31,720 nt of DNA from Escherichia coli (GTDB lineage: Bacteria; Pseudomonadota; Gammaproteobacteria; Enterobacterales; Enterobacteriaceae), in assembly GCF_003334385.1 (NCBI RefSeq), contig NZ_QOWN01000053.1; one strand, written 5' to 3'. Of this stretch, positions 13,488 to 15,461 are shown one piece after another. Positions within the stretch are counted from its first letter, which is position 1. The number at the start of each line of letters is the position of its first letter. Under the pieces are notes generated by a model. It worked only from the letters and a program-made list of their open reading frames with translations. It ran no database searches and had not been told where the DNA came from. The translations under genes and the position numbers were made by a program.

Positions 13488-15461
13488 TTATGCTGCTACG
13501 GCATTCACACCAACAGTAAGACTTTCAATCAGCACAGGGTAAGTTGCCGCATTTCCGGTAATATCCGTAATTGCCAGCGCGTTGGCCTCAAAGGCTGCAT
13601 TCGTCCATCTGGTCAGCGTAAACGGTTTTCCTGCTGCATTATCAAGCACCGGCGTGACGTTCAGCGAGCCACCACCCGGGAAGCGGAAAGTCAGCGTGTG
13701 CCAGTCGTGATCGAACGGACCATAACTACCAAGCCGCTGTGATGTGGTGTTTGCATGATACATCACATTGATGTTTGTTTTATCAGTCTGCAGATAGAAG
13801 GCCGCAATATAACCCTCCTCTGATTCCGCTCCCGGCCATCCACTACCGCGCCAGTAAATACCCGCAGAATATTGATTTGCAGAAGCATTGAGAGATACAT
13901 CATCGGGGATTTTAAAGCGCAGCGTGATTTCACCGCCGTTATCGAACAGCTCCTTCCCCTTACCGGCATCAATTGCGTGCGATACTTTCCAGGTCTTTTT
14001 CTGTGCAAGACCATTTTCTGGTTTTTCAAGACGAAGGGCTTTTTTACCTGAACCACTGTCACTGACCAGCGTGTTTTTGACATCTGTCAGCGTCCAGCCC
14101 TGCGAAGCCAGATCGGCATTTTCCGCATTCGCATCATAAGCCAGCACTGACTGTATCTTTGTCGGGACAACGGATTCAGGCTGAGTATCGCCACTCTCCT
14201 GTGCTGGTTGCGATACGCCTCCGCCTGAAGAAACCGCGGCTTTTGTCACTTTCCCGGAAACAAAATCTGCCACTCTGCCCACATGCAGAAGAATGGCTGT
14301 TGCCAGACGGTCGGAAATAATTCCGCGACGCGCCCATGAACCAAAGTGGGTTTTACGATCGGATGTTGTCCAGCTCTTCGCATCCGTTCGTCCACCGGAA
14401 CCATAATACCCGATAGCCGGAATATCCGGGTCTTCTGACGGTTCATTGGTCCCGACTTTCTGACCATTGTCATCCATCATAAACGGCACAAAGAAGATAT
14501 TTTTACCGGCTTTGGTTTTGTATGCGCCATAGACGGCATCGTATTGCGCTGAATACGTCTCCTTCCAGTAGTACGTCGTGTCACCACAAATCCAGGGCAC
14601 CAGAGAAGGAGAAGCACCAGCGCACTGACCGGATACTCCCGCCAGGTCAGAACGGTATTTTTCCACCATGGCATCAAACATGGCGGGCTGACTGGCGTAC
14701 GCTCCCTGTTTTAAATCAAACTCGCCCTGCATCCAGACAACACAAAGCAGTATGTTTTTGGGGTTTGCCTTCAGCGCGGCCTGAGTGCGTGTCAGCAGGT
14801 CTTTATACAACGGCTTATCAACGCCCCATCGTTCAGATTTATCCGACGCTCCTGAACTTTCACTGAACGTTCCGTCAGCACCGGCTGTAAACGCAGAGCC
14901 ACCACGACAGCACGGCACTAACAAAATACCCGCATTTTCCGGCATAAAGGGCAACAGCTTTTTGGCAATATGCAATCCCTGTCCGACACACCCATACTGC
15001 TCTGCGCTGGCTTTCGGATGAGAAAAACGGCTCAAATCCTGCACATCATGCAGGCAGTGGTCCGCCGGAATGATGTCGTTATATGCACAGGCCGCACCAC
15101 CCGGTGTCACCGTACTGCGACGCGCCAGCTGTTTAATACGCGGGTCCGGACGGTCATATGTCTCCGGCAGCGGCAGGCCTTCACCATACGCCATGCCGTT
15201 TGACTGTCCGGCCAGCGCAATGACAAAGTAATATTCTGGTTCAACAACAACAGTCCGGGTACCATCTCCCCCCGGTGAAACTACCGGAGAGGTCATATCC
15301 CCTTCAGCGACTATAGCCTGGATAAATTCAGCACCATAACCCGCGTTTGAGATAATCGGACTACCATAGGGTTGCCAGCCTTCCTTCAGTTTTTGCGTCA
15401 GTTTTCCTGCGAGGTCTGACGGCGATGATGCCCTGACCACGTCATAGTGTTTAAATGCCAT
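13488..15461 (-). CDS. nanS-p: NanS-p-type sialate 9-O-acetylesterase (prophage esterase, about 657 aa)
   Basis: Large late-operon ORF upstream of the lysis cassette, at the position nanS-p occupies in Stx-type lambdoid prophages; start set at MAFKHYDVV... with GGGAGGAATA SD. Confidence 0.75.
   Translation of the reverse strand: MAFKHYDVVRASSPSDLAGKLTQKLKEGWQPYGSPIISNAGYGAEFIQAIVAEGDMTSPVVSPGGDGTRTVVVEPEYYFVIALAGQSNGMAYGEGLPLPETYDRPDPRIKQLARRSTVTPGGAACAYNDIIPADHCLHDVQDLSRFSHPKASAEQYGCVGQGLHIAKKLLPFMPENAGILLVPCCRGGSAFTAGADGTFSESSGASDKSERWGVDKPLYKDLLTRTQAALKANPKNILLCVVWMQGEFDLKQGAYASQPAMFDAMVEKYRSDLAGVSGQCAGASPSLVPWICGDTTYYWKETYSAQYDAVYGAYKTKAGKNIFFVPFMMDDNGQKVGTNEPSEDPDIPAIGYYGSGGRTDAKSWTTSDRKTHFGSWARRGIISDRLATAILLHVGRVADFVSGKVTKAAVSSGGGVSQPAQESGDTQPESVVPTKIQSVLAYDANAENADLASQGWTLTDVKNTLVSDSGSGKKALRLEKPENGLAQKKTWKVSHAIDAGKGKELFDNGGEITLRFKIPDDVSLNASANQYSAGIYWRGSGWPGAESEEGYIAAFYLQTDKTNINVMYHANTTSQRLGSYGPFDHDWHTLTFRFPGGGSLNVTPVLDNAAGKPFTLTRWTNAAFEANALAITDITGNAATYPVLIESLTVGVNAVAA

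Follow-up and report, generated by a model that had tools for sequence, protein, structure and literature searches.

The closest described counterparts of the gene analyzed here are the NanS-p proteins of the Stx phages 933W (L0105/z1466) and phi24B (vb_24B_21, gp84). The 933W homologue ranks with the most strongly induced genes upon norfloxacin treatment, activity on Neu5,9Ac2 and mucin glycans has been shown for NanS-p alleles other than ours, and seven active alleles in EDL933 are cited by the same review (PMC8065619). For phi24B, gp84 has been described as a capsid decoration protein of the virion that is anchored by its DUF1737 domain, with residues 2–57 resolved by cryo-EM as a hexameric plug of the central hexon; gp84 is also among the strongest protein bands of purified virions (bioRxiv 10.64898/2026.04.10.717836). 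Only DUF1737 was seen in mature phi24B capsids and the enzyme part was concluded to be cleaved off, a conclusion of this single preprint, in which SSP motifs of both linkers are named as cleavage sites as a proposal only (bioRxiv 10.64898/2026.04.10.717836).

The locus described below lies in a 31,720-nucleotide stretch of Escherichia coli DNA, which was analyzed at its full length and is called the window. Going by its gene content, the phage that carries the locus is a non-Stx podovirus-type prophage like phi24B and 933W (Sepvirinae). All head-gene ORFs in the window are intact and 82–97% identical to those of phi24B, including terL (96%), the portal (97%) and the major capsid protein (93.8% to vb_24B_29). 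The capsid protein scores above the cut-off of the N4-gp56 family model, the T=9 capsid type that goes with gp84-type decoration:

3661..4875, minus strand: major capsid protein of the N4-gp56 family (NCBIfam TIGR04387, 84.3 bits against a cut-off of 60), candidate docking partner of DUF1737

The nanS-p gene and its late-region neighborhood

The minus-strand ORF extends from a TTG at 15491 to position 13488 and encodes 657 amino acids when started at the ATG at 15461, a full-length product within the family range of 621–674. The coordinates 13488..15461 assigned in the first-pass annotation are correct, because this ATG is preceded by a GGAGG Shine-Dalgarno sequence, which is also kept in 933W and BP-4795, and because the resulting N-terminus, MAFKHYDVV, is present in 80 of 80 related loci. 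The gene and its parts are as follows.

13488..15461, minus strand: nanS-p coding sequence, 657 amino acids plus stop; NanS-p family sialate O-acetylesterase by sequence
15466..15470, minus strand: Shine-Dalgarno GGAGG, 4 nt 5′ of the ATG at 15461
15300..15461, minus strand: DUF1737 domain, putative capsid anchor (residues 1–54; loop type A, AGYGAEF, with Tyr42 and Gly54)
15246..15299, minus strand: linker 1 (residues 55–72), Ser/Pro/Gly/Thr-rich, 29% identical to phi24B
14268..15245, minus strand: SASA/NanS catalytic core (residues 73–398) with GQSN, WMQGEFD (243–249) and His372
14154..14267, minus strand: linker 2 (residues 399–436), low complexity, 13 residues longer than that of phi24B
13491..14153, minus strand: C-terminal lectin-like jelly-roll domain (residues 437–657, DUF6645; 6YP6 match), 48% identical to phi24B

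Three Pfam domains make up the NanS-p architecture in this protein: DUF1737 (residues 3–53, E 1.4e-16), the SASA core (PF03629, residues 83–274, E 5e-9) and the C-terminal lectin-like DUF6645 (residues 508–618, E 1.1e-26). A sequence search of the PDB aligned residues 71–391 with E. coli NanS/YjhS (3PT5, E 3e-118) and residues 437–653 with a NanS-p C-terminal domain (6YP6, E 1e-43), a match to PHROG 143 covers the full length, and the RefSeq entry for the exact protein is WP_016237845.1, ‘SASA family carbohydrate esterase’. The NCBIfam search with the esterase protein matched no family, which is no argument against membership because PGAP names this protein through Pfam-based rules. The SGNH/SASA blocks are present as G85-Q86-S87-N88 (block I), W243-M-Q-G-E-F-D249 (block III, QGE) and H372. 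In the 3PT5 alignment, Gln86, Ser87 and His372, which are invariant in 23 homologues, fall on Gln18, Ser19 and His301, the catalytic and oxyanion residues of NanS (PMC9063846). The earlier proposal of a NanS-p-type esterase is thus borne out at the level of homology and conserved catalytic residues. The product almost certainly belongs to the prophage NanS-p family, of which it is an uncharacterized allele.

In DUF1737, 44 of 54 residues (81%) are identical to phi24B gp84, including Tyr42 and Gly54. The linkers differ in their motifs: in the alignment with phi24B, linker 1 carries MTSP and VSP at the place of the phi24B SISSP, only TSP follows Gly54, and linker 2 lacks an SSP motif. An AlphaFold2 model built from a 23-sequence alignment (mean pLDDT 58, pTM 0.41) adds nothing as a whole, its only credible parts being an all-β C-terminal domain (pLDDT about 70–88) and a disordered linker 2 (pLDDT below 30). 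A hydropathy check, used in place of a dedicated predictor, found neither a signal peptide nor a membrane segment in the protein, the maxima being 0.87 for 15-residue windows within the first 75 residues and 1.24 for 19-residue windows anywhere.

The surrounding genes are arranged on one strand in the order Q-like gene, sRNA genes, nanS-p, DUF1378, DUF826, S, R and Rz, collinear with 933W and phi24B.

16912..17538, minus strand: Q-like putative late antiterminator, 208 amino acids, after ninH and rusA (PHROG 753, ‘anti-termination protein Q-like’, E 3.5e-68)
16726..16755, minus strand: hairpin and U-run about 160–190 nt 3′ of the Q-like gene, candidate tR′-type leader terminator
16521..16647, minus strand: tRNA-like remnant at the ileZ-argN-argO place of Stx phages (Rfam tRNA, 26.5 bits against a gathering threshold of 29)
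16178..16371, minus strand: STnc100 sRNA gene, copy 1 (Rfam RF02076, 138.7 bits, gathering threshold 47)
15967..16142, minus strand: degenerate STnc100-like copy (Rfam, 29.6 bits, E 3.6e-4, under the gathering threshold)
15693..15902, minus strand: STnc100 sRNA gene, copy 2 (Rfam RF02076, 129.9 bits)
13153..13347, minus strand: small ORF of the DUF1378 family (PHROG 494; RefSeq name), 90% identical to phi24B vb_24B_23
12837..13301, minus strand: ORF of the DUF826 family (PHROG 8301/311; RefSeq name), 69% identical to 933W L0106
12545..12760, minus strand: class II holin S (PHROG 9876/20), 82% identical to phi24B S
12007..12540, minus strand: endolysin R, a lysozyme (PHROG 7), 89% identical to phi24B R
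11047..11514, minus strand: Rz spanin (PHROG 13), 91% identical to phi24B Rz
11109..11294: Rz1-like ORF embedded in Rz, from the ORF list

The gene therefore has the lambdoid late-region placement described for it in the first-pass annotation, downstream of the Q-like gene at 16912..17538 and upstream of the holin, endolysin and Rz genes, all of them on the minus strand. The Q-like gene itself has no match in Pfam, NCBIfam or the PDB, and we call it ‘Q-like’, a putative designation, from its PHROG match and its position. Folding of the RNA at 16700–16900 gave a 13-bp stem followed by UUUUUGUUU (z −2.7), from which we infer a tR′-like element at 16726..16755. A functional tRNA gene at 16521..16647 was considered and rejected: ARAGORN found no tRNA and the Rfam score is below gathering, which leaves a remnant. 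A terminator-like hairpin lies at 15974–15993 inside the degenerate STnc100-like copy. Upstream of nanS-p, Rfam detected no AsxR even at E ≤ 1, and the equivalent spot holds only an opposite-strand terminator; between the esterase gene and the holin, the stretch considered for the PasA/PasC sRNAs, Rfam gave no match. A promoter scan of the minus strand from 12500 to 17600 returned no σ70-like promoter. The hand-picked sequence TTGCTT-17-TATGTT just downstream of the Q-like gene is too weak to be claimed as pR′.

The absence of stx, which had been reported for this locus, holds throughout the window, where the best tblastn match with Stx2A and Stx2B has an E value of 0.77. There is no stxAB operon between the Q-like gene and nanS-p, and this interval holds just the sRNA genes and the tRNA-like remnant. 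A count over 5,426 complete genomes of E. coli gave 2,421 nanS-p-like places, spread over 1,160 genomes, and 1,103 stx operons, the latter divided into 743 stx2 and 360 stx1 places; nanS-p without stx is the commoner state. Furthermore, nanS-p in non-Stx prophages has already been published (PMC10462455; PMC8065619). A toxin-free nanS-p as such is already known, and the further notion of a modular cargo slot at this position is only partly supported: the stretch that varies between phages lies upstream of nanS-p and holds tRNAs and stx in 933W and a tRNA-like remnant with extra STnc100 copies here. The nanS-p gene itself is a near-constant late gene for which the label ‘cargo slot’ is misplaced. 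The value of the case is that it comes clearly from outside STEC (strains from the feces of a healthy person and from a urinary-tract infection) and shows the enzyme as part of the phage, not as an add-on to the toxin.

Co-variation of DUF1737 with head type

BP-4795 combines a core close to that of phi24B with a divergent DUF1737 and an unrelated head, a contrast that prompted a test of co-variation between the parts of NanS-p and the head module. It was carried out on 26 loci, a small sample of related loci, and on a dereplicated set of 16. Across the 26 loci, DUF1737 is 94.0% identical within head types and 76.3% identical between them. The corresponding values are 83.1 and 83.2% for SASA and 64.8 and 64.1% for the C-terminal domain. 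At the nucleotide level, the difference for the DUF1737 segment is +13.2 points (92% within a head type versus 79% between types), which was reached in 0 of 2000 label permutations; it is −0.5 for the 300 nt upstream, +0.5 for the remaining gene and +1.0 for the 600 nt downstream. Dereplication left the DUF1737–head difference at +12.3 (1 of 5000 permutations). The DUF1737 segment alone tracks the head type, and no such association is seen for the catalytic part, the lectin-like part or either flank. Simple linkage or shared ancestry of the phage backbone was therefore rejected as the sole cause of the association, because the segments on either side of DUF1737 show none.

At least three loop types can be distinguished in DUF1737. 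Type A occurs with N4-gp56-type heads, type C with a head marked by a 670-amino-acid terminase, and type B is common to two head types, BP-4795-like and lambda-like. One locus (L038) is an exception: recombination in the lysis region has brought its type-A DUF1737 together with a BP-4795-type head. The idea that BP-4795 lacks the Tyr42 loop was dropped: the tyrosine is found in all three loop types, which differ in length and sequence.

The pattern can tentatively be read as modular capsid display, in which DUF1737 would anchor the protein to a particular head type, with selection keeping anchor and capsid matched, and the esterase and lectin domains would be exchangeable payloads; we regard this generalization as possible and give it somewhat less than even odds. 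If it is true, capsid display of a mucus-modifying enzyme would be general in temperate E. coli phages of commensal, extraintestinal and STEC strains and would reach unrelated head architectures beyond the single phi24B structure. The main interest of the locus is this domain-level pattern, with a 160-nt DUF1737 segment that stays matched to the head while its surroundings shuffle. Should the pattern hold, a gene regarded for ten years as a metabolic ‘moron’ would turn out to encode a virion surface enzyme, with consequences for the behavior of temperate coliphages in gut mucus and for the interpretation of the multiple nanS-p copies of pathogenic E. coli.

Role of the product and alternative explanations

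The best overall explanation is that the locus encodes an intact NanS-p that is expressed late and probably tethered to the virion (a probability of roughly 0.7). Its parts differ in strength. The layout of the region and the published data on the 933W homologue make late expression likely, in keeping with the co-expression with the lysis genes proposed earlier. Capsid tethering in this particular phage, for which the phi24B cryo-EM structure and the co-variation argue, we hold to be slightly favored. Three further hosts of the same allele, including an isolate from the feces of a healthy person and a UPEC isolate, carry an N4-gp56-type capsid gene.

In the mechanism that we propose, nanS-p would be read within the late transcript, through the several intrinsic terminators of the upstream STnc100 sRNA genes. 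Synthesis of the protein would take place in the cytoplasm, late in infection, and only lysis would let it out of the cell. Its DUF1737 hexamer would plug the central hexons of the N4-gp56-type capsid, so that the virion displays the esterase and lectin module, possibly to be shed later by linker cleavage. The displayed module would strip O-acetyl groups from mucin sialic acids, which could aid the phage in mucus and feed surviving lysogens with Neu5Ac.

The strongest alternative treats NanS-p purely as lysogenic-conversion cargo: soluble enzyme, released by lysis of an induced sub-population, would take the O-acetyl groups off mucin sialic acids and so allow the surviving lysogens to grow on Neu5Ac, and DUF1737 would be irrelevant or merely stabilizing. 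The esterases encoded by nanS-p alleles of EDL933 and O104:H4 are indeed active and make growth on Neu5,9Ac2 possible (PMC8065619), the catalytic core is intact in the window protein, the catalytic and lectin parts swap freely between phage backbones as a movable fitness module would, and the enzyme part is unseen on mature phi24B capsids (bioRxiv 10.64898/2026.04.10.717836). However, such a role leaves unexplained why DUF1737 alone tracks the head type while the flanks and the remainder of the gene do not, as well as the strong gp84 band of purified phi24B virions (bioRxiv 10.64898/2026.04.10.717836), and the gene has neither a promoter-like site of its own nor a signal peptide. We consider this explanation unlikely, with perhaps one chance in a few. 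DUF1737 anchors the protein in the capsid of phi24B, and in our comparison it varies together with the head; this points to a virion-associated protein, in place of a free moron or of the cargo proposed in the first-pass annotation. The product is probably a virion-tethered late enzyme and not free-floating cargo. The two roles are not mutually exclusive.

A virion-borne enzyme could also be directed against bacterial surfaces, removing O-acetyl groups from O-antigen or capsule (e.g. O-acetylated polysialic acid) for adsorption, like tailspike esterases. This was raised as a possibility in the review PMC8065619, and two observations would suit it: (i) the exact allele is found in extraintestinal and commensal strains, and (ii) the protein diverges most in its C-terminal lectin-like domain (48% identical to phi24B), which fits differing glycan targets. 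Against it, the tested family members all act on Neu5,9Ac2 and mucin O-glycans (PMC8065619), the described docking site is on the capsid faces and not on the tail (bioRxiv 10.64898/2026.04.10.717836), and nothing in our data ties the allele to a host serotype; we judge it very improbable. That the gene is an inactive, decaying remnant in a defective prophage, as the terminase, portal and capsid genes annotated as frameshifted next to it in one host genome (G1/2) might suggest, is scarcely credible and already contradicted by the sequence, given an ORF of family length with all catalytic and block residues kept, intact head-gene ORFs throughout the window, and two phages 99.7% identical at the nanS-p gene, PhiR5_2 and PhiR12_3, whose complete genomes were deposited with K-12 and ECOR13 named as the hosts.

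Comparison with known systems

The virion-tethered enzyme proposed here has its nearest counterparts in 933W L0105 and phi24B gp84, with which it has the three-domain build and the catalytic residues in common and to which it is 58.6% identical over the full length. By part, identity to phi24B is 81% in DUF1737, 73% in the core, 48% in the C-terminal domain and 20–29% in the linkers. In 933W and phi24B, as in the window, nanS-p follows an STnc100 gene and precedes DUF1378/DUF826, S, R and Rz, the head module is of the same kind, and DUF1737 has loop type A with Tyr42 and Gly54. The window differs in that it has no stx or functional tRNA genes upstream and a non-canonical Q-like regulator, and in having two to three STnc100 copies, compared with a single one (207.7 bits) between stxB and nanS-p in 933W. 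The alleles with shown activity on Neu5,9Ac2 and O-acetylated glycans of mucin (PMC8065619) are 73% identical in the core to the window allele, a putative esterase of the same kind. BP-4795, a long-tailed Stx1 phage, carries a gene (yjhS/ORF43) of the same family, architecture and late-region place as the window gene. Its core and C-terminal domains are 97–99% identical to those of phi24B and its DUF1737 is 63% identical, with a shorter, type-B loop (TPYTLMQ), and its head is of an unrelated type with a fused protease-capsid protein.

Chromosomal NanS belongs to the nan regulon and is a single-domain enzyme that is exported by a signal peptide. Its SGNH type II core (YjhS, 3PT5) is homologous to that of the window protein (E 3e-118), with a Ser/His dyad and a Gln in the oxyanion hole. 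Unlike NanS, the window protein lacks a signal peptide, has DUF1737 and a lectin-like domain besides the core, and is encoded in a phage late region.

More distantly, T4 Hoc, a mucus-binding capsid decoration protein, and the hemagglutinin-esterase of coronaviruses and influenza C offer a working analogy only, that of a glycan-binding protein on the virion surface, and we claim no sequence relationship. Hemagglutinin-esterase is an envelope glycoprotein of eukaryotic viruses. It joins a glycan-binding module to a sialate O-acetylesterase of the SGNH fold (PMC9063846). The comparison with Hoc, a monomer without an enzyme, was made in the phi24B preprint (bioRxiv 10.64898/2026.04.10.717836). In contrast to both, the anchor proposed here would be a hexameric DUF1737 plug.

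The esterase gene and its late-region neighbours

The ORF on the − strand spans 15491 (TTG) to 13488 and, read from the ATG at 15461, encodes 657 amino acids. Because a Shine-Dalgarno-type GGAGG lies 4 nt 5′ of this ATG and the resulting N-terminus, MAFKHYDVV, is common to the Stx phages 933W and phi24B and to 80/80 related loci, the coordinates 13488..15461 assigned by the first-pass annotation are correct. Three Pfam domains are found in the protein:

Residues 3–53, DUF1737
Residues 83–274, SASA (PF03629)
Residues 508–618, DUF6645 (lectin-like)

A PDB sequence search matched E. 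coli NanS/YjhS (3PT5, E 3e-118) over residues 71–391 and the crystallised NanS-p C-terminal domain (6YP6, E 1e-43) over residues 437–653. NanS employs a Ser19/His301 dyad, with Gln18 in the oxyanion hole (PMC9063846). In a HMMER alignment, Gln18, Ser19 and His301 correspond to Gln86, Ser87 and His372 of the window protein; these residues and the WMQGEFD block do not vary among 23 members of the family. The three domains, the structural matches and the conserved catalytic residues bear out the identification as a NanS-p-type sialate O-acetylesterase, and the proposed search for NanS-p/SGNH esterase families did recover SASA/NanS-like domains. PHROG 143, which carries no assigned function, spans the whole protein, no NCBIfam model matched it, and its AlphaFold model is poor (mean pLDDT 58). 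A hydropathy check over the whole length found no stretch sufficiently hydrophobic for a signal peptide or membrane segment. The gene is intact and represents a divergent allele of a family that has been studied in detail; its product is predicted to be active.

All the named genes (Q-like, esterase, lysis and head genes) lie on the − strand. The 208-aa protein encoded upstream of the esterase belongs to PHROG 753, ‘anti-termination protein Q-like’ (E 3.5e-68), and its gene comes after homologues of ninB, rusA and ninH. Since Pfam, NCBIfam and PDB searches with this protein gave no match, it is a putative late regulator, so designated from PHROG 753 and its position. The gene (16912..17538, −) is of the non-canonical type of Salmonella phage ST64B Sb49, and RefSeq names its product hypothetical; in the UPEC-245U prophage, whose nanS-p allele and head are the same, a canonical Q-family gene stands at this position. 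Downstream of the esterase come small DUF1378 and DUF826 ORFs, a class II holin, lysozyme and Rz/Rz1, followed by both terminase subunits, the portal and an N4-gp56-family major capsid protein. The placement of the esterase between the late regulatory region and the lysis genes thus holds. As the morphogenesis genes are collinear with those of phi24B (terL 96%, portal 97% and capsid protein 94% identical), the element is a Sepvirinae-like podovirus-type prophage.

Elsewhere in the window, positions 1..1000 display a GC content of up to 0.65, a strongly negative AT skew and several long ORFs that overlap one another, a pattern that would suit a repeat-rich tail-fibre gene continuing past the window edge. 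An ORF6N antirepressor gene (19284..19955) is preceded, at 20009..20196 (−), by isrK (69 bits) and a C4 antisense RNA (66 bits) in tandem; the arrangement is embedded in a lambdoid nin region and resembles the P1/P7-type immI antisense-controlled antirepressor module. In the closely related prophages PhiR5_2 and G1/2, the stretch matching about 20137..20847 bears the annotation of a toxin of the HigB/RelE family together with its HTH antitoxin.

The interval between the Q-like gene and the esterase

The interval is 1.45 kb long and is not empty.

RNA features of the interval (Rfam)
15693..15902, − strand, STnc100 sRNA gene (RF02076), 129.9 bits, gathering threshold 47
15967..16142, − strand, degenerate third STnc100 copy
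16178..16371, − strand, STnc100 sRNA gene (RF02076), 138.7 bits, gathering threshold 47
16521..16647, − strand, tRNA-like stretch, 26.5 bits, just under the gathering threshold of 29

The two full STnc100 copies and the degenerate one are in tandem, about 470–485 nt apart, a copy-number expansion relative to 933W. The tRNA-like stretch, negative in ARAGORN (which found no tRNA gene in the window), has an intact-looking T-arm and acceptor end with about 55 extra nt and probably represents a tRNA gene that has decayed or been interrupted; Stx phages carry ileZ-argN-argO at this site. The 933W counterpart of this interval contains three tRNAs, stxAB and, between stxB and nanS-p, a single STnc100 copy; its opposite strand encodes AsxR, which an Rfam search did not find in the window. 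Because homology between 933W and the window starts again at the STnc100 gene, the variable slot is the stretch between Q and STnc100. The modular cargo slot proposed for the esterase is therefore misplaced, nanS-p itself belonging to a conserved unit with STnc100, DUF1378, DUF826, S and R. The same order of sRNA, esterase, holin and lysozyme appears in a 2026 preprint on Pas sRNAs, which relates STnc100 to PasD, links it with esterase genes and reports that <3% of chromosomal PasA loci adjoin stx.

Several terminator-like elements punctuate the region. A GC-rich hairpin followed by a T-run at 15663..15682 (+), on the strand opposite to the late genes and just 5′ of nanS-p, sits at the AsxR terminator position of 933W and BP-4795, a long-tailed Stx1 phage, where a poly-A/GCCCG element aligns; an antisense sRNA not yet described could end here. 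A candidate leader terminator, formed by a hairpin and a U-run, is present at 16726..16755. A strong intrinsic terminator (12799..12827, −; 12-bp stem and T-run) directly precedes the holin start, at a site for which PasA/PasC-type sRNAs have been reported, and a second hairpin with an A-run ahead, terminator-like on the + strand, follows the nanS-p stop (13455..13490). No pR′ promoter was located with confidence in the window, and a promoter scan of the late region found no − strand promoter-like site.

nanS-p without a toxin

The esterase was said to occur without stx, and tblastn of Stx2A and Stx2B against the window indeed gave a best E of only 0.77. This absence is true but ordinary: nanS-p in non-Stx prophages is already in the literature (PMC10462455), and EDL933 has seven active alleles (PMC8065619). 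Among 5,426 complete E. coli genomes, a megablast with this allele, a divergent query that yields a lower bound, found 2,421 places in 1,160 genomes, against 743 places in 602 genomes for the stx2 operon and 360 places in 349 genomes for stx1. At least 1,300 nanS-p copies therefore have no adjacent toxin and at least 209 genomes no co-resident one; lack of stx is the common condition. The exact allele (≥99%) occurs in 20 genomes; among those with a stated origin are isolates from the faeces of a healthy person, a urinary-tract infection and wastewater. Its RefSeq name is ‘SASA family carbohydrate esterase’, and it is also found, at 99.7%, in two deposited phages, PhiR5_2 and PhiR12_3.

DUF1737 and the capsid

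According to a 2026 preprint (bioRxiv 10.64898/2026.04.10.717836), the NanS-p of phi24B (gp84) gives one of the most intense bands of purified virions. Cryo-EM resolves its residues 2–57 (DUF1737) as a hexameric plug in the central hexon of every T=9 facet, anchored by Tyr42 as a ‘tooth’, and the remainder is apparently cleaved off later. Phage record ON470612.1 (vB_EcoS-640R1) encodes at 28347..28568 a stand-alone DUF1737 protein matching residues 1–88, with no esterase. This agrees with the preprint, which counted many proteins made up of DUF1737 alone; these may decorate capsids with nothing attached.

Compared with phi24B, the NanS-p of BP-4795 shows 97–99% identity across the core and the C-terminal domain and just 63% across DUF1737, and the phage’s fused protease-capsid protein has no similarity to the window capsid protein; this contrast bears on whether DUF1737 is tied to the head module generally. 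An IMG/VR scan gave 80 NanS-p loci, of which 23 extend far enough to include head genes that can be recognised; adding the window, phi24B and BP-4795 gives a set of 26 with four head types (phi24B-like, BP-4795-like, lambda gpA/gpB-like and 670-aa-terminase). The DUF1737 loop falls into three types, all retaining the Tyr.

Loop types and head types in the 23 IMG/VR loci
Type A, AGYGAEF: 3 phi24B-like heads, 1 BP-type head
Type B, TPYTLMQ: 6 BP-type heads, 7 lambda-like heads
Type C, SYTDDGA: 6 heads of the 670-aa-terminase type

Two further type A/phi24B-like loci come from the window and phi24B, and one further type B/BP-type locus from BP-4795. Across the 26 loci, which are a small and related sample, protein identity within and between head types is 94.0% and 76.3% for DUF1737, 83.1% and 83.2% for the SASA core, and 64.8% and 64.1% for the C-terminal domain.

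Nucleotide identity within minus between head types, head labels permuted across the 26 loci
300 nt upstream: −0.5 points, observed value reached in 985/2000 permutations
First 162 nt (DUF1737): +13.2 points, 0/2000
Rest of gene: +0.5 points, 595/2000
1–600 nt downstream: +1.0 points, 179/2000
601–1500 nt downstream: +3.6 points, 29/2000
1501–3000 nt downstream: +5.1 points, 18/2000

When the set is dereplicated to 16 loci, the signal in DUF1737 persists (+12.3, 1/5000) and the flanks are still null. The DUF1737 segment is an island of association, with ~2 kb of freely shuffled sequence between it and the head genes. Because unassociated sequence flanks the island, simple linkage or shared ancestry is ruled out as its whole cause; selection keeping the anchor matched to the capsid is the simplest explanation. 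The match is not one-to-one, as anchor type B serves both BP-type and lambda-like heads. The one clear mismatch is a recombinant Stx1 phage (IMGVR_UViG_2778260993_000014, about 13500..15400), in which a type-A nanS-p block (about 92% identical to a phi24B-type phage) is joined to a BP-4795-type head, with the junction in the lysis region. The co-variation, the only mildly new element here, concerns the NanS-p family as a whole rather than the window locus, and supports and extends the recent structural claim.

Given the layout, the lack of a − strand promoter-like site and the published induction of the 933W homologue (PMC8065619), nanS-p would most likely be read late, by read-through from a Q-dependent promoter across the sRNA terminators. 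The protein would then most likely fold in the cytoplasm, dock on new capsids via DUF1737 and exit the cell at lysis, its SGNH core stripping 9-O-acetyl groups from sialic acids and its lectin-like domain targeting glycans. Lysogens that survive could still profit from released Neu5Ac under this course of events. The first-pass observation is confirmed and its interpretation partly supported: this is a familiar type of nanS-p, covered by existing public annotation and located where such genes normally lie.

Along its full length the window protein shares 58.6% of its residues with 933W L0105 and phi24B gp84, with 81% identity in DUF1737, 73% in the core, 48% in the C-terminal domain and 20–29% in the linkers. 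The proposed SSP cleavage motifs of phi24B are only partly present, Tyr42 and Gly54 are kept, and the window phage has the same capsid type as phi24B.
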